DNA of 41,802 nucleotides from a virus (taxonomy: Duplodnaviria; Heunggongvirae; Uroviricota; Caudoviricetes). A program made the translations under genes and the position numbers. The notes below the pieces were generated by a model. The model searched no databases. It had not been told where the DNA came from and saw only the letters and a list, made by a program, of their open reading frames with translations. Positions 3,566 through 36,386 of the stretch are shown piece after piece. The stretch lies in the IMG/VR virus record IMGVR_UViG_2541047852_000009; one strand, given 5' to 3'. How positions within the stretch are numbered: position 1 is the stretch's first letter; each line of letters starts with the position of its first letter.

Positions 3566-6500
3566 TCAGCTAATCGTGATGCCTGCAGTGGCTTTCTTCA
3601 TCACAACAACCAGCAAATCGCTGATACTTGCTGTGGGATACCAGCCATTTACCCACCATGCTGATACAGAAAACTCCAGCGTCATGTGGCCGCGACCAGC
3701 AGGCATATCAATAACACCACTGTAAACCAGCGTATTATCCAGCGCGGTACGGTTATAAATTTCAGCACCGTTTTTCCGTACTATCAGGCGGCATGACGAA
3801 TAAATATCGTTATTCTCCCGCTCATGTCTGGCACCGCTGAATGCCACCGCCGGAATAACAATTTGCCGGTCAAACGGCTGATCGTCATAAACCCTGACGG
3901 TAATGGTCCCTGATGGCCACCTCTCCGGTGCACGGGAGTCACGGGGGAAAGCCTTACCCACTGTTTTAACGAGATCGCCTTCAATCTGGTTTGCAGACAG
4001 TTTCCCTCTGATGACACAGTTCTCGTTAATGGTGACATTATTGAGCGTGCCGGTATTCGCCGTGATGGCTCCACTGATATCCGCATTGCGGGCTGTCAGC
4101 CTGCCATCCGGCGTCAGGGAAAACGTAGGAGGATTGCCGGATGACGTGATGCTCACCGCAAACAGTCGCTTCAGGAACACGTCGTTCATGAACAGCTGAT
4201 TCCCCTGCGCCACAAACAGCGGCGTGGTGTTGCCGTTCTCCGGGGTAATCATCGCGATACGGTCCGCCTGCAGCAGAATACTGCTCAGCGTCTGACCATC
4301 AACATCCTCAATCCCCGCGCCAATCCCGGCCACATAGGGAATACCGTTTTTTGTTTTCTGCACCTTCAGCATATACATGGCATTCAGCTCATTGCGCGTG
4401 TCTGACTGAACCCGCTGGATTTGCTGTATGGTCACGGCCTGGTCACCCAGTTTTTTATCCGTGGTCGAGGTAATTTCACTCCCTTTTTTATCCACGTACT
4501 GGCGGACCTGTGCTATCTGTCGGGCATTTTCTGACTGCCCCTGGCTGACAGTCTGTGAGATTTCACTGCTCACCCGGTCCACTTTCTGGCTCACCTGCGC
4601 GATGGCCAGTGTCTGGTCCTCATTCTTTTTCGCAACCAGCTGCGTGAGGCTGTTTTCCGCCTCCCCGATTTTCCGGGTCACTTCTGCGATATCCGTGTCC
4701 ATCCGCTGACGGATGTCTTCTTCCAGTTGCGTGACCTCCGTACGCAGCGCTGAAGCATCAATGCGCTCTTTCAGTGCCTGGCCCAGAAGCGTCTCATCTA
4801 TCAGCCCCCGGAAAATTTCCAGATACCCTTCACCATCATTGCTGGGCTGCCCGCTGGCTTCCACAAAAGCAGATTTTCCCACCAGGTTGACGCTTCGCAC
4901 GTAAAACCAGAAATCCGTCCCCGGCTTAATCCGGCTCCCCTGGACAGTCCACTGACTGCCGGTCCCCAGATAACGGGCAGATTTTTCCACCTGTGCCGTG
5001 TTCGTGATGCGTTTTTCTGAGAACCAGAATTCAAACTGTACCGTCGGGTCATACACCGCAAGACGCGGGACCGCCGTTATCTGAAAATACCCCGGCGTCA
5101 GCTCAATGGTGGCAGGTTTTGCAGGTGCGTTAATCCTGAACGTGGTGGTGGCCGGTTCGCCCTGCTGGCCATAACTGTTAATCGCCCTGACCGTCAGGGT
5201 GTATTCCCCCAGTGGCAGGCCGCTGAAACGGTGCTCCGTGTCTGCGGTGATGGCGGTGGTCACCAGTCTGGCATCCGTTCCCTTACCACTGGTCAGGCGC
5301 AGACTGAAGCGCACGCCCTTCACCACCCGCGGCGTGTCCCATTTAGCCTGCGCCAGATACTGGCCGTCAGCTGCACTCACCTCCACCGTCAGGTGCTGTA
5401 CTGCCGGTGGGATGACGCTGTTCAGGGAACCTGACTGCAGCTCAAAGCGGGCACCGTTATCCACGATGGCTTCTTTTTCCGGTACGTGCTGCACCGCCGT
5501 GATGGCAAAGGTGCCGTCCGTGTTTTCCCGGACGGAGACACAGCGGAACAGGCGACGGCGCAGTGACGGCAGGGAGAGTCCCCACACCCCGTATGTCTCC
5601 ACACCATCAGGCAGGGTACTGACCTGTATCCGGTCCGGCGCGGGGTGTGCGGTGATGTCCACACTCACCGGCTTACCGCTGCCGTTAATCAGGTTCACCG
5701 CCGATGTACCTGTCTCCGGCAGGGTAACCTCACGGTCCAGCGTCAGGGTGCGGGTGGCAGCATCAATGGACAGGACACGTCCGCCGGTCAGGGTCCCGGC
5801 ATAGTCATTATCACAGATTTCAATAATGTCACCGGGTGTGTGCCGCAGCCCCTGAGACCCGAGCGTGAAATCCACCGTCTGCGTTTCCAGCAGTTCGGTC
5901 TTTATCACCCACAGTCCGGCACGGTGGGCCTGACCGCGGCTGGTACAGCCGAACGCGTCCATCTTCAGCAGGTTGCGTCCGTAGCGCAGTATGGCTTCCG
6001 GGTCTTCCACCAGTTCCGTGGAGGTCTGCCAGCCGTTCTGCGGGTCGGTGTAATTCACCTCCACCGCCGTGTGCCGGTCCTTCAGGGCACTGAAGCTGTA
6101 GCGGAATCCCACGCCGTTATCATCCACCACCACATCGCTGTTGGTGTACGGCCACACCACATCCGACGGGCGGTCCTGAACGAACGTCAGCGTCTGACCG
6201 TTCCATACCGGCATACAGCGCATCGCAGAGCAGAAATCACTGAGAACGTCCCACGCCTTACGCTGTTGTGCCAGGTACGCATTAAAGGTCATCCGCGGCT
6301 CGGTCCCCCCGAAACCATCCGGGACCGTCTGGTCGCAGTACTGCCCGATGGCATACAGCGCCCACTTGTCCACATCCGCCGCCCCCAGACGTTTTCCCAT
6401 GCCGTAGCGCGGGTGAGTCAGCATGTCCCACAGGCACCAGGCCGGGTTGTTGCTGTATGCCGGTTTCAGACTGCCGTCCCAGATACCACTGTACGTGCGT

Positions 6501-25141: not shown

Positions 25142-25324
25142 CTACGGAATGAGCGGATCTTCGGGTTTGCTTCCGGCTGACTGACTGGCGCTGATTCTCT
25201 CAGCGGCCCTTTTATCAATCTGCCTGCGCCAGAAATCGCGCACTGCCCTGTACCCACCCGAAAGAAGATACATAACACAGACTGCCGTACAGAAGTACAG
25301 CATCACCTGATGAATAAATGTCAT
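25142..25324 (-). CDS. Small membrane protein (60 aa)
   Basis: Single hydrophobic segment then basic tail; ATG 25324. Confidence 0.4.
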   Translation of the reverse strand: MTFIHQVMLYFCTAVCVMYLLSGGYRAVRDFWRRQIDKRAAERISASQSAGSKPEDPLIP

Positions 25325-25421
25325 AATTTCTTACCGTTATGGTTGACAATGAGAACTGTTTTCATTTAAAAAACCGATATACGAAAGCATCTTTTCTTTA
25401 CATTCTCCATTGGGATTACCT

Positions 25422-25459
25422 CCGCCAGCTTCCATTCCTGCCGCTGGCGGCCTTTTTTT
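25422..25459 (+). terminator. Plus-strand rho-independent terminator immediately 3' of the NanS-p-like gene
   Basis: 8-bp stem ccgccagc/gctggcgg (25422-25429 / 25443-25450) followed by TTTTTTT (25453-25459). Confidence 0.45.
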
Positions 25460-25460
25460 A

Positions 25461-27431
25461 TCATGCCGCAGCATCCGCGTTGTTCACTTCCACCTTCACA
25501 CTGTCAATCAGCAGCGTATATGTCGCCGCCTTTGATATGCCTGTCAGTTGCAGTTTGTCCGCCGCCCCTGATGCCGGAGATTTCACCAGTGTGAACGGCG
25601 TCCCCCGTTTCTCATCCAGTACCGGCGTCACCTGAATGCTGTTGTTTCCGGCAAACTCAAAAGCCAGTGTGTGCCATCCGTTATCAAAGACCCCGAACGT
25701 ATCCAGCTTCGCATTCGGCTTCTTGTGGTGCATCGCGTTCAGGTTCGTCGCATCCGTCTGCAGGAAGAAGGACATCAGCATGTCGTTGCCTTCCTCTGCC
25801 AGCGTCACTCCCTCCGGCAGGGACGACAACTGCCAGTAAATGCCCAGGGCAAACTGATTCGGCACCAGTGAACCCGGCAACTTAAACCGTACGCTCACAC
25901 GTCCCCCCTTCTTCAGTAACTCCACTCCCTGTCCGGCTGCATCATGCTCCAGAAACCAGATGTGGTTTTCCGGTTTATTCAGTTGCAGGGCCTTACCTCC
26001 CGTAGCCCCCGCATCACTGACCACCGCTTCAGCAATGTTTTTGTTAACATTGTCTCCGCTCGCCGGTTTGTGATAATAGCGCCAGCCCTGTGATGCCAGG
26101 TCTTCGCCGGACGCCAGCAGACTCATCAGGGTTCGGTTACTGACCGGGGCTTCCGGCTCTCTCTCCGTACCTTCACCGGAAGGTCCGGTGGGCTTCACCG
26201 TATCAGGCTGTTTTCCGGTAATGAATTCAGCGTTTCTCCCGGCATGCACAAGAATCGCCGTTGCCAGACGGTCGGAAATAATCCCACGACGTGCCCATGA
26301 TCCAAAATGCGTTTTACGGTCAGCCGTCGTCCAGGTTTTGGCGTCCGTTCGACCACCGGCTCCGTAATACCCAATATCCGCAACATCCGGATCTTCTGAC
26401 GGCTCGTTGGTACCCACATTTCGCCCGTTTTCATCCGTCATAAACGGCACAAAGAAGATTTTTTTTGCGGATTTCGTCTTGTATGCACCATACACCGCAT
26501 CGTATTGCGAAGAATAAGTCTGCTTCCAGTAGTAGGTCGTGTCGCCACAAATCCAGGGAACTGATGACGGAGAGCCCCCGAGACACTGACCTCCGAATTC
26601 CGACAGGTCAGAACGATATTTTTCCACCATGGAATCAAACAGCCCCGGCTGAGTGGCGTATGCACCCTGTTTCAAATCAAACTCGCCCTGCATCCAGACC
26701 ACTGCAAGCAGAATATTTTTAGGGTTGGCCTTCAGTGCGGCCTGAGTACGGGTAAGCAGGTCCTTGTACAGTGGCTTATCTACACCCCAGCGTGCCGAGG
26801 TCTCGCTTGCGCCGGTGGATTCGCTGAAGGTACCTTCATCGCCCGCCAAAAATGCAGAACCACCACGGCAGCACGGAACCAGAAGAATACCGGCATTCGC
26901 CGGAATAAACGGCAACAATTTCTTCGCGATATGTAATCCCTGCCCCACGCATCCATACTGAGCTGCGCTGGCTTTCGGGTGTGAAAACTTACTCAAATCC
27001 TGAACATCATGCAGGCAGTGGTCCGCAGGAATAATGTCATTGTAGTTACAGGACGCACCACCCGGCGTGACAGTGCTGCGACGCGCCAGCTGTTTAATAC
27101 GCGGGTCCGGACGGTCATATGTCTCCGGCAGCGGAAGCCCTTCACCATACGCCATACCGTTTGACTGCCCGGCCAGGGCAACAACAAAGTAATACTCCGG
27201 GTTGCTGGTGGTGCTGATAACTGCGCCTTCTCCATCCGACGGCTTCACCACCACAGGTGTGGTGACATTACCTTCTGCGACAATCGCCTGAATAAGTGCT
27301 GCGCCATCATCCGTATACGAAGAAAACGGCCCGCCGTATGGTTGCCATCCTTCACGAATTTTTTGAGCAAGCGCATCCGCAAGGTCTGACGGCGATGCCG
27401 CCCTGACCACGTCATAGTGTTTAAATGCCAT
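25461..27431 (-). CDS. Prophage NanS-p-like sialate O-acetylesterase (DUF1737 N-terminus plus SGNH/esterase domain)
   Basis: 656 aa; position between the tRNA cluster and the holin is where 933W-type phages carry this gene; strong RBS GGAGGA. Confidence 0.7.
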   Translation of the reverse strand: MAFKHYDVVRAASPSDLADALAQKIREGWQPYGGPFSSYTDDGAALIQAIVAEGNVTTPVVVKPSDGEGAVISTTSNPEYYFVVALAGQSNGMAYGEGLPLPETYDRPDPRIKQLARRSTVTPGGASCNYNDIIPADHCLHDVQDLSKFSHPKASAAQYGCVGQGLHIAKKLLPFIPANAGILLVPCCRGGSAFLAGDEGTFSESTGASETSARWGVDKPLYKDLLTRTQAALKANPKNILLAVVWMQGEFDLKQGAYATQPGLFDSMVEKYRSDLSEFGGQCLGGSPSSVPWICGDTTYYWKQTYSSQYDAVYGAYKTKSAKKIFFVPFMTDENGRNVGTNEPSEDPDVADIGYYGAGGRTDAKTWTTADRKTHFGSWARRGIISDRLATAILVHAGRNAEFITGKQPDTVKPTGPSGEGTEREPEAPVSNRTLMSLLASGEDLASQGWRYYHKPASGDNVNKNIAEAVVSDAGATGGKALQLNKPENHIWFLEHDAAGQGVELLKKGGRVSVRFKLPGSLVPNQFALGIYWQLSSLPEGVTLAEEGNDMLMSFFLQTDATNLNAMHHKKPNAKLDTFGVFDNGWHTLAFEFAGNNSIQVTPVLDEKRGTPFTLVKSPASGAADKLQLTGISKAATYTLLIDSVKVEVNNADAAA

Positions 27432-27922
27432 GAATCCTCCCGGCCGGGATAATATTGTGAGTAAAATAAGGAGCGGGCTGAAGTCCGGAAGTTACAGGAC
27501 AATGGCAGAAGAGAGACGACAGCCCGCAATTCGAAAAAGGCCACGCAGTTGCGCAGCCTTATGAATTCTGGTTAAAATCCATTCGATTATAAAAATGTAT
27601 ATCTCATGCTGTTGCCCGAACCCACTCGGTTTTTTTTTGCCCACAAGAAAGCCCCTCCGGAGAGGGGCTAAAGCCGCGTATCTGTATCATCATGCACATG
27701 GTGCCGGGTGCCTCCCGGTGAGTTCAGTATCAGCACCTGAACCCGCACAGAAAGGATAAGGGTCGGTGACAAAACACCAGTCGCTGATTGCCCCTCCGCA
27801 CAGGGGGATTCACCATGCCAGTTTCTTTTAACAAACTCCCCGCAAAACAGACAACTGTCAACCGTCTGAATTGTGAGACATTTAAAAAAAAGCCCGCAAA
27901 AGCGAGCCGGGAAAAATAAGTC

Positions 27923-28212: not shown

Positions 28213-28491
28213 TCATCCGTTCTGGCTGACTAAATCCTGTACTTCCCGAACCGTCTGCTCAAAACGTTCAGTCTCCAGCTCAACGCCAATTGCACGACGC
28301 CCGAGCGCCAGTGCCGCTTTCACTGTCGAACCCGACCCCATGAAAAAATCTGCAATCAGGTCACCCGGACGACTGCTAGCGCTGATTATCTGCTGCAGCA
28401 TTTCTGCCGGTTTTTCGCACGGATGTTTCCCGGGATAGAACTGCACCGGTTTATGCGTCCAGACATCGGTATACGGCACCTGCGCCGTCAC
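28213..28491 (-). pseudogene. Remnant of a DNA methyltransferase (C-terminal ~92 aa only)
   Basis: Translation contains the methyltransferase motif DLIADFFMGSGSTVKAALALGRRAIGVE; no N-terminal domain; a terminator hairpin lies in the upstream in-frame region. Confidence 0.45.
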
Positions 28492-34765: not shown

Positions 34766-35594
34766 GACGATGCCCTCCGCTGATATTAAGGAGACGGTGA
34801 ATATGAAAATTAGCCTTATCCGCCAGACGAATACGTTCAGCCTGCAAGTTAAGAAGGGTTTCTACCAGAACCTGATGTGCCTGCGGATCCGAAAGAGTTA
34901 CCTTGCGCAGAGCACGTAGTGCAGTTGTTACATAACTGAGTTTATGTAAGTCGTCATCATTCAGACGAGAGAGGGCTGGGACAGTAGCCATGATGGCAGC
35001 CTCCGTATGCAATGGATAACTTCCACCACCGGAAACGCCAATTTCGCTGGTGGTGAACTGAGCAGGGTTGGCGTAACCGGCGCATACGGAAACCGGCGCA
35101 CCTTTCGGTGCCCCCACCCAGCCCACCATAATTTGGGTATAGCTGAGTTGTAGCAACAAAAAAGACGCTAACGCGCCAATTGTCGCCGTATGCAATTCCA
35201 GGACGCCAATCCCGGCACCCGCTTTATAAGGTGCCTGAACAGTGTAACGTCCCGGAATGGCAGAATCAATGTGCTGGTGGTCCTTCACACTCAACAAAAT
35301 CACGCCTGAATTTCCACAAAGGACTAAAGCACTCATGCGGGTAGTCTTTGCGAAGATAGATAACGCGCTGTGTTTCTGGCTCCCAACGAATAACATGGAC
35401 ATAAAGCCCTCTTCCGTCACGAAACCAGCGGTTAAGTTCCTGCACAACTCGCCCCCCACAGTCAGGTAAAGTTCTCTGTGGTTACTTACAGCCAGGTGAT
35501 TTGGTAATCTGCATTCATGCCGTAACAACAGGTGTTCAGCGACACTGACCACCAGCTGTTGCGACAAACGATTATTTGCCGTTAAACTGTTCAT
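34758..35594 (-). CDS. Conserved prophage protein (YdaU-like, tentative)
   Basis: 278-aa ORF directly downstream of the cII/YdaT-like gene, the position YdaU holds in Rac; no recognisable motif. Confidence 0.35.
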   Translation of the reverse strand: MNSLTANNRLSQQLVVSVAEHLLLRHECRLPNHLAVSNHRELYLTVGGELCRNLTAGFVTEEGFMSMLFVGSQKHSALSIFAKTTRMSALVLCGNSGVILLSVKDHQHIDSAIPGRYTVQAPYKAGAGIGVLELHTATIGALASFLLLQLSYTQIMVGWVGAPKGAPVSVCAGYANPAQFTTSEIGVSGGGSYPLHTEAAIMATVPALSRLNDDDLHKLSYVTTALRALRKVTLSDPQAHQVLVETLLNLQAERIRLADKANFHIHRLLNISGGHRHA

Positions 35595-36185: not shown

Positions 36186-36386
36186 TTAATCTTTCGGATA
36201 GATATCCGGTCTTAAGTCAGATTTCGTAATTGCACCTGACGTGCATTGCTCAAGTTTTTTAGCCAGCACAAAACTGGCTTTTTTATAACCATTGAAAACC
36301 AGCCGTAAGTAGCCTGGTGTTGAGCCAACTTTTCCGGCCAACTCGCCCTGCTGTTCTTTGGTTAAAGAGTCCCAATACGCTTTCAT
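36186..36386 (-). CDS. cro: Cro-like HTH repressor (YdaS-like)
   Basis: 66 aa from ATG 36386 (MKAYWDSLTKEQQGELAGKVGSTPGYL...); divergent from cI; the listed ORF start at 36410 would cover an operator palindrome. Confidence 0.6.
   Translation of the reverse strand: MKAYWDSLTKEQQGELAGKVGSTPGYLRLVFNGYKKASFVLAKKLEQCTSGAITKSDLRPDIYPKD

Follow-up and report, generated by a model that had tools for sequence, protein, structure and literature searches.

A candidate Esr41-like small RNA gene between the esterase and lysis genes of a lambdoid Escherichia coli prophage

The DNA at positions 25325-25460 of the window (the whole analysed stretch of 41,802 nucleotides) probably contains an unannotated and diverged sRNA gene of the Esr41 family, located at the site that PasC and EcOnc52 occupy in other prophages, whose product would act in trans together with Hfq. 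The sequence features of the unit, its conservation, its homology to Esr41 and its positional equivalence to PasC and EcOnc52 were established in this work. A preliminary description of this DNA had proposed a short plus-strand RNA gene with its own promoter and terminator, convergent with the late operon, and with the conservation and the Esr41 homology presented below this is the best reading of the unit.

The source DNA is a lambdoid, Stx-phage-like E. coli prophage, and the queried stretch is 100 % identical to strain HS13-1. The late region lies on the minus strand and comprises, in this order, Q, three tRNAs, an STnc100/PasD-type RNA (27639-27847), the esterase gene, DUF1378, DUF826, a P21-type holin, DUF1327, lysozyme and Rz. 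The gene of the NanS-p-like sialate O-acetylesterase (25461-27431, minus strand) was recognized by the Pfam domains DUF1737, SASA and DUF6645 and by the RefSeq annotation. Its stop codon (TCA at 25461-25463, TGA on the minus strand) is separated from the terminator of the putative sRNA by a single base (A, 25460). The DUF1378 gene (25142-25324, minus strand; Pfam PF07125, E 2e-36) encodes a protein of 60 aa with one predicted transmembrane helix, and a literature search returned no description of DUF1378 function. The DNA of the DUF1378 ribosome-binding site overlaps the sRNA promoter; the predicted sRNA itself does not overlap it. VT2-Sakai, VT1-Sakai and some 300 further phage records, most of them of Stx-converting phages, show a matching arrangement with approximately 84 % DNA identity. 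On the other side of the esterase gene Rfam matched an AsxR/AgvB-type unit at 27584-27636.

The -35 hexamer TTGACA (25343-25348, plus strand) was read directly from the sequence and corresponds in the alignments to the TTGACA in the promoter of Esr41. The -10 region TTTAAAAA (25365-25372, plus strand) is weak, with no T at -7, and offers two candidates, TTTAAA at 25365-25370 with a 16-nt spacer and TAAAAA at 25367-25372 with an 18-nt spacer; both promoter elements are present as originally described. The predicted Esr41-like sRNA of about 81-84 nt (25376-25459, plus strand) was delimited with the use of Rfam, nhmmer and pairwise alignment. Its 5' end was placed according to the 5' end of Esr41, taken from the primer of an expression construct, and the promoter geometry, and its 3' end was placed in the U-run.

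The predicted RNA begins with a 5' stem-loop region GATATACGAAAGCATC (25376-25391), with a conserved CGAAAG, which the alignments identify as the counterpart of the Esr41 5' hairpin. The stem-loop is weaker in the window variant because of an A-C mismatch, and covariation gave no support for a structure in this part. It is followed by a U-rich stretch TTTTCTTTAC (25392-25401) that has no counterpart in Esr41 when the two are aligned and may possibly serve as an Hfq contact. U-rich single-stranded stretches and U7 tails are usual for Hfq-dependent sRNAs. Further on lie a seed-1-like segment TTCTCCATTGGG (25403-25414), corresponding to the Esr41 seed TTCTCCATGGGG, and a seed-2-like segment TTACCTCCGCC (25416-25426), at which Esr41 has TTCCCTCCGCC and which overlaps the 5' arm of the terminator; all these elements are on the plus strand.

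The intrinsic terminator (25422-25459, plus strand) consists of an 8-bp stem with the arms CCGCCAGC (25422-25429) and GCTGGCGG (25443-25450), a long loop of 13 nt, CC and T7 at 25453-25459. RNAfold retained the 8-bp hairpin in the MFE as well as in the centroid structure. The earlier observation of a GC-rich 8-bp stem with T7 ending one base before the esterase stop is confirmed. The spacing of approximately 80 nt reported between the -10 region and the terminator has to be corrected, as the stem begins about 50 nt after the -10; the figure does correspond to the length of the whole predicted RNA, about 82 nt. Only in the plus-strand orientation does a T-run come after the hairpin; read on the late strand, the hairpin has A7 in front of it and no U-run behind it.

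Consensus scans by themselves do not place the unit above chance. The promoter scan omitted the window promoter because its -10 lacks T at position 6, and the terminator scan saw just a 5-bp version of the window hairpin. Terminator-like sites were in excess in the 12-kb neighbourhood (26 found vs 11.7 ± 4.4 expected), and the folding of the whole region was unremarkable (z = -1.8). The unit is considered more than a chance arrangement because of the comparative evidence and the homology to a known sRNA.

When the region 25250-25520 was scanned permissively with Rfam, the full Esr41 model (RF02676, positions 1-74) matched 25384-25458 on the plus strand with 18.2 bits and an E value of 0.29 over 4,227 families, a score far under the Esr41 gathering score of 102 bits, so that the threshold was not reached. 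The VT2-Sakai orthologue scored 30.9 bits against the same model (E 0.057 in a 52-kb search), and authentic Esr41 in SpLE1 of Sakai (L089, 2548-2621) scored 108.6 bits. A more extended similarity was found by nhmmer, with which the profile of the window family matched the promoter (TTGACA-N17-TTATAT), the body and the terminator of Esr41 in this order, with an E value of 3.5e-4 in a 5.5-Mb search space; HMM positions 22-138 were aligned with L089 2509-2618. In a shuffle-controlled global alignment of the predicted RNA with Esr41 z reached 9.6 and none of 2000 shuffles aligned as well. The same control gave z = 5.0 for the body without the terminator and z = 3.5 for the promoter.

The TTTTTTTATCA junction is kept after Esr41, and no esterase homology extends beyond it there, which suggests that Esr41 is a stranded copy of the phage module. 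The reviewed literature describes Esr41 solely as an sRNA of OI-43/SpLE1, with no link to the window family. Such a link was presumably not reported because blastn cannot connect the two families: a blastn search with Esr41 against phages and E. coli genomes returned near-identical Esr41 copies only.

The site itself is known to carry sRNA genes. PasA and PasC of EPEC E2348/69 were found by RIL-seq, confirmed by Northern blot and are Hfq-dependent; they lie between the esterase gene and the next gene on the opposite strand ("> < >"). Equivalent units of EHEC Sakai, EcOnc51 (Sp12) and EcOnc52 (Sp4), were revealed as Hfq-CRAC peaks. All four RNAs are bound by Hfq, act in trans and are expressed in lysogens. 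The 3' end of PasC is 2 nt from the esterase stop, and a minor 3' end of PasA as well as EcOnc52 abut the stop. The geometry seen in the window is thus that of a known class, since validated sRNAs occupy the same position in the same orientation.

Sequence homology to PasA and PasC, a family that was delimited by means of blastn, was considered and rejected. A MAFFT alignment was suggestive, but blastn, nhmmer and the shuffle-controlled alignment found only generic promoter and terminator cores. No blastn match to PasA or PasC was obtained at the window locus, a profile of the window type run with nhmmer against the Pas loci gave E > 3 over the terminator only, and the bodies of PasC and the window RNA aligned with z = -0.7. 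Judged by sequence, PasA and PasC are positional analogues of the window unit and not its homologues.

Conservation was assessed with 80 IMG/VR loci encoding relatives of the C-terminal half of the esterase, from each of which the DNA downstream of the stop codon was extracted. Together with the reference loci of E2348/69, Sakai and VT2-Sakai these yielded 39 distinct modules, and the counts below refer to the 29 that were of the window type and short enough to be aligned. Five of the six positions of TTGACA are invariant in these distinct relatives and the sixth is kept in 28 of 29. The -10 is TAAAAA, TAGAAA or TGAAAA, located 17-18 nt from the -35 behind a variable spacer. CGAAA is nearly invariant, and no variation at all was seen in TCCAT, in the stem core CCGCCA/TGGCGG or in the T-run. 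The RNA body between the conserved elements diverges and in places is swapped wholesale, so that several module types could be told apart (window, "W2", Sakai, L061, L070, L072/L086 and a long-loop type), and in some phages two modules stand in tandem. Fixed -35, -10, CGAAA, TCCAT, stem core and T-run combined with a variable body form the pattern of a promoter, seed and terminator rather than that of a coding region, and the two seed-like segments are the best-conserved parts of the window family outside the terminator.

The signals that are specific for one strand are the conserved upstream -35 and the conserved downstream T-run. The stability of the hairpin was also considered as strand evidence and was discarded as not discriminating, the late-sense hairpin being slightly more stable in 33 of 38 variants. 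A G-U pair considered as evidence in this connection was likewise given up. RNAalifold predicted only the six invariant stem pairs, with no compensatory changes. The eighth pair of the stem is C-G, U-G or U-A depending on the variant. Compensatory variation across variants is seen at one stem position alone.

Esr41 is an Hfq-dependent EHEC sRNA of approximately 70 nt that targets ribosome-binding sites. Compensatory mutations have demonstrated that it pairs directly with the chuA, cirA and bfr messages and thereby represses them; it also affects motility and LEE. Its seed 1, UUCUCCAUGGGG (UUCUCCAU-GGG-G), was validated on chuA and cirA and is defined by the Esr41-M1 and chuA-M1 primers; seed 2, UCCCUCCGCC (UCC-CU-CCGCC), was validated on bfr and is defined by the Esr41-M2 and bfr-M1 primers. 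The corresponding segments of the window RNA, UUCUCCAUUGGG and UACCUCCGCC, each differ from the Esr41 seed at one position. The duplex predicted for the window RNA with the validated chuA site had an energy of -19.5 kcal/mol, compared with -23.2 kcal/mol for Esr41, and none of 300 shuffles was as good. The predicted bfr duplex (-15.4 kcal/mol) was no better than shuffles, 99 of 300 of which were as good. An RNAduplex scan of the whole window for targets in trans brought out only the cis site, the remaining hits being GC-driven noise, and a seed-motif scan of one genome per species gave a single match, in a probably contaminated MAG.

Mechanistically, the unit most likely encodes an Hfq-type sRNA that is expressed in the lysogen and acts in trans. 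Transcription would start near 25376-25379 from a sigma-70 promoter whose -35 is perfect and whose TAAAAA-type -10 is weak, and the intrinsic terminator abutting the esterase stop would release a product of approximately 82 nt. This RNA would begin with a 5' stem-loop, contain a single-stranded stretch rich in U and end in the long U tail that is typical of Hfq-binding sRNAs, and would carry two C/U-rich anti-Shine-Dalgarno seeds, UUCUCCAUUGGG and UUACCUCCGCC. It would be produced in the lysogen, when the Q-dependent late operon is silent, and with Hfq it could pair in trans with ribosome-binding sites of host or prophage messages and repress them, as Esr41 does at chuA, cirA and bfr. We infer transcription, Hfq dependence, trans action and targets of the window RNA in this sense.

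The 125-nt module is widespread. Of 5,426 complete E. coli genomes 956 carry it, at 2,007 places altogether, with a median of 2 and a maximum of 7 per genome, and a 98.4 % identical copy is present in the chromosome of the O104:H4 strain 2009EL-2071. No RNA feature was annotated under the module among the matches listed, and the RefSeq annotation of the fully identical HS13-1 record has none in this intergenic region. Most Stx phages, both Stx1 and Stx2, carry the module, including the Sakai prophages Sp5 (NC_002695.2, intergenic region 1272086-1272219, minus strand) and Sp15 (2922031-2922167, plus strand). The list of 63 Hfq-CRAC sRNA candidates, which includes EcOnc51/52 and Esr41, does not contain these two Sakai copies. 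The ranked Hfq-bound intergenic regions in the supplement of Tree et al. 2014, in which EcOnc51/52 and Esr41 appear, contain no ECs2971 entry; the Sp15 copy would be the ECs2971...ECs2972 intergenic row. A literature search for a transcript at the Sp5 and Sp15 copies found nothing. The expression of the unit can be checked at once in existing EHEC datasets.

By geometry the window RNA is fully complementary to the late transcript. This had been stated correctly in the preliminary description, which had likened the arrangement to type I toxin-antitoxin systems or to cis control of lysis timing. In such a scheme the plus-strand RNA would pair with the late mRNA and block a leader ORF coupled to DUF1378, in the manner of hok/mok/sok, or trigger RNase III cleavage, or else convergent transcription would interfere, with the result that leaky lysis genes are silenced or the timing of lysis is tuned. 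The late strand does contain suitable elements: the conserved seed reads there as a strong SD-ATG (GGAGG-N8-ATG), the TAA of a 14-aa ORF (25410 to 25366) abuts the ATG of a second ORF of 14 codons (25365 to 25321), the TGA of the latter overlaps the ATG of DUF1378, and DUF1378 is a 60-aa single-pass membrane protein. Moreover, in 14 of the 34 variants compared for their ORFs (a set including five long-loop variants outside the profile of 29 relatives) the first ORF extends over 23-25 codons and terminates 12-15 nt ahead of the DUF1378 ATG. However, the predicted RNA stays at least 52 nt upstream of the start codon of DUF1378 (25324) and so leaves the ribosome-binding site and the holin gene uncovered. 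The leader ORF is not conserved, being of 4 aa in VT2-Sakai and L084 and different or missing in the L061, L072 and L086 types; the changes observed in it either replace amino acids or lie in the promoter spacer, and the peptide FLNEN..CQ coincides with the -10 and -35 read backwards. The -10 in this direction (TTTAAATGA) supplies stops in two frames automatically. The module also occurs where DUF1378 is missing (at Esr41, in tandem units and at the PasA/PasC loci), a promoter for a toxin is not apparent and DUF1378 is part of the Q-dependent late operon, Rfam Sok gave no match at the window unit (25250-25520), and the relatives for which data are available act in trans. With this gap, the independence from DUF1378 and the trans-acting relatives, the toxin-antitoxin or lysis-timing role is not supported, and a regulator dedicated to cis-antisense action is unlikely. 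An effect in cis by interference, by sponging of the sRNA by the late mRNA or by RNase III cleavage is retained as a minority possibility. The small ORFs could also constrain the conserved elements by themselves, as a translational relay bringing ribosomes to DUF1378, with no sRNA gene involved. The strong SD before the first ORF, the stop-start junctions of the TAAATG and ATGA type and the fact that each of the three frames terminates at the second ATG or 12 nt ahead of the ATG of DUF1378 would suit a relay, but its frame and length vary (4, 10, 13-15 or 23-25 aa), the second ORF has no SD, the promoter block is kept where DUF1378 does not follow (L072-L081, L086, Esr41), and the conservation of the plus-strand T-run and the homology to a known sRNA are left unexplained, which makes this explanation highly improbable. 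A conserved small protein encoded on the late strand was rejected as well, since its reading frame lacks conservation and what seemed to be conserved coincides with the promoter hexamers.

Alternatively, no functional plus-strand RNA might be made. The hairpin could stabilise the 3' end of the esterase message, serve there as a processing site or be the scar of a recombination event, and the TTGACA could be due to chance or be what is left of a decayed Esr41-like gene. The failure of the scan to call the promoter, the regional excess of terminator-like motifs, the slightly higher stability of the hairpin in the late-mRNA sense and the lack of an Hfq-CRAC peak at the Sakai copies are in line with this. 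On the other hand, the -35 and the T-run are essentially invariant though the bodies have diverged or been swapped, the T-run is of use on the plus strand only, the homology to Esr41 is colinear through promoter, body and terminator, and PasC and EcOnc52, which have the same layout, are transcribed. The absence of a functional RNA was for these reasons judged quite improbable, and an Esr41-family sRNA gene acting in trans is preferred.

If the unit is expressed, Esr41 gains a large family of unannotated, seed-diverged paralogues, present in about one-sixth of complete E. coli genomes and often in several copies, whereas the reviewed literature treats Esr41 as a single-copy sRNA of an EHEC-specific island, involved in haem and iron uptake, colicin sensitivity, motility and LEE. 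The finding opens no new mechanism. In a recent blastn survey Pas homologues were found in seven phage genomes only, most related phages being without them. The present data suggest that the site is occupied in those phages by the Esr41-like sRNA family instead, which, if the unit is expressed, would account for most Stx phages being Pas-negative by blastn.

A wider interpretation, which we put forward as speculative and rather unlikely, is the following. The esterase-lysis junction of lambdoid and Stx prophages could be a cassette site, at which a fixed promoter and terminator frame interchangeable bodies (Esr41-like, PasC-like, PasA-like, long-loop or tandem arrays). In the lysogen the Esr41-like RNA would act in trans to repress host genes such as the haem receptor gene chuA. 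Once the prophage is induced, late transcription antiterminated by Q would occlude the promoter and supply a perfectly complementary sponge, so that the regulon would be switched by the lysogeny-lysis decision. Esr41 of SpLE1 would then be a stranded copy.

Among the known systems PasC and EcOnc52 share site, orientation and promoter layout with the window unit. They are convergent with the late genes, the U-run of their terminator abuts the esterase stop (...GCTGGC..TTTTTTTAT(C/T)A), TTGACA is followed after 17-18 nt by an A-rich -10, and their length of 65-79 nt is similar to that of the window RNA. The stem is AGCCAGCG in place of CCGCCAGC, and in their prophages a holin gene or an IS element follows, not DUF1378. 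Like the window unit, PasA and EcOnc51 lie between the esterase and lysis genes in antisense orientation to the late operon, here directly with a holin as neighbour; they are Hfq-dependent, and their seed overlaps the terminator stem, a parallel to seed 2 of the window RNA. Unlike the window unit, they are the distal members of a tandem pair, approximately 150 nt from the esterase stop, and are unrelated in sequence.

AsxR and AgvB, too, are short sRNAs of prophages that run convergently to the late operon; their 3' part is conserved and their 5' part variable. However, they occupy another moron site (stx or tRNAs to esterase), belong to another sequence family and are sponges of core sRNAs; the Rfam models RF02703 and RF02702 (AsxR/AgvB) gave no match at 25250-25520 even at E ≤ 10. 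HnrS (EcOnc10-12) was dismissed as a counterpart since it is located elsewhere, approximately 2 kb past the lysis genes. Unlike the hok/mok/sok system, the window unit has a leader ORF that lacks conservation, an RNA lying outside the membrane-protein gene, no promoter dedicated to a toxin, and no strict co-occurrence of the two genes.

The closest relative in sequence is Esr41 (EcOnc14). The window unit differs from it in the U-rich insertion of about 10 nt, in one change per seed, in the longer terminator loop and in the weaker -10. It is located in a lambdoid late region beside the esterase gene and often in several copies per genome, whereas Esr41 lies beside iha in SpLE1/OI-43 and occurs at a median of 1 place (at most 2) per genome in 695 genomes. 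Both have a colinear TTGACA promoter, 5' hairpin, U-run and ATCA junction, and share the segments UUCUCCAU(G/U)GGG, UCC(C/A)UCCGCC and the CCGCC(G/A)GC...GCUGGCG terminator. They are similar in size and the same in overall layout, and both end in a GC-rich terminator hairpin with a long poly-U tail, which in the window is made up of the 8-bp stem and U7.

The Esr41-like sRNA gene predicted at 25343-25459 (+) is opposed on the late strand by a relay of two tiny ORFs leading into DUF1378 (25321-25410, -). ORF-A (25410 to 25366, 14 aa), preceded by the Shine-Dalgarno sequence GGAGG, ends with a TAA that directly abuts the ATG of ORF-C (25365 to 25321, also 14 aa), whose TGA in turn overlaps the DUF1378 ATG. 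Among relatives the length of ORF-A ranges from 4 to 25 aa. The relay possibly arises as a side effect of the sequence of the sRNA promoter.

Upstream of the NanS-p-like esterase gene, an AsxR/AgvB-like anti-sRNA at 27584-27636 (+; Rfam AsxR, 51.2 bits, E 3.9e-7, the gathering score of 63 not being reached) adjoins and converges with an STnc100/PasD/StxS-type RNA at 27639-27847 (-; 136.6 bits). The two constitute a classic moron-site convergent sRNA pair, which is probably what the preliminary description had counted as its first sRNA-like unit. Matches to C4 antisense RNA (35046-35133, -; 80.7 bits) and isrK (35158-35234, -; 61.2 bits), both over the Rfam gathering score, adjoin each other, and a truncated DNA methyltransferase pseudogene lies between Q and the tRNAs (28213-28491, -). 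The hairpin AGCCAG-cacaaaa-CTGGCT followed by T6 (36256-36285, +) is similar to the Pas-type terminators and is located elsewhere in the prophage.

The exact seed-to-stem motif was found in only one species-representative genome, at 5784-5808 of locus L090 (JAFDDH010000157.1). This contig belongs to a 'Deltaproteobacteria' MAG, into which it was probably mis-binned from an E. coli phage.

In the Sp5 prophage of the RIMD Sakai chromosome (NC_002695.2 1268834-1272085, comparison locus L088) an IS629 element interrupts the esterase gene; the VT2-Sakai phage record does not show this interruption.

Tandem pairs of sRNA modules were present at the comparison loci L072-L075, L077-L081 and L086, 3' of the esterase stop, and also at L003 and L005. 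A separate TTGACA promoter and a separate terminator of the form CCxCCAG...CTGGxGG belong to each module, and the module bodies are shuffled among phages. The same tandem layout is seen in E2348/69 PP2 and Sakai Sp12, where PasA is accompanied by an esterase-proximal unit.

The peak coordinates of EcOnc14 (Esr41) given by Tree et al. are approximately 100-200 nt off Esr41 in record version.2. In Sakai SpLE1 (L089 2610-2625) the junction TTTTTTTATCA follows the Esr41 terminator, and no esterase homology was found after it at this locus. TTTTTTTATCA is common to the Esr41 locus and to the prophages, in which the junction abuts the esterase stop. Esr41 thus has the look of a phage module that was left stranded.
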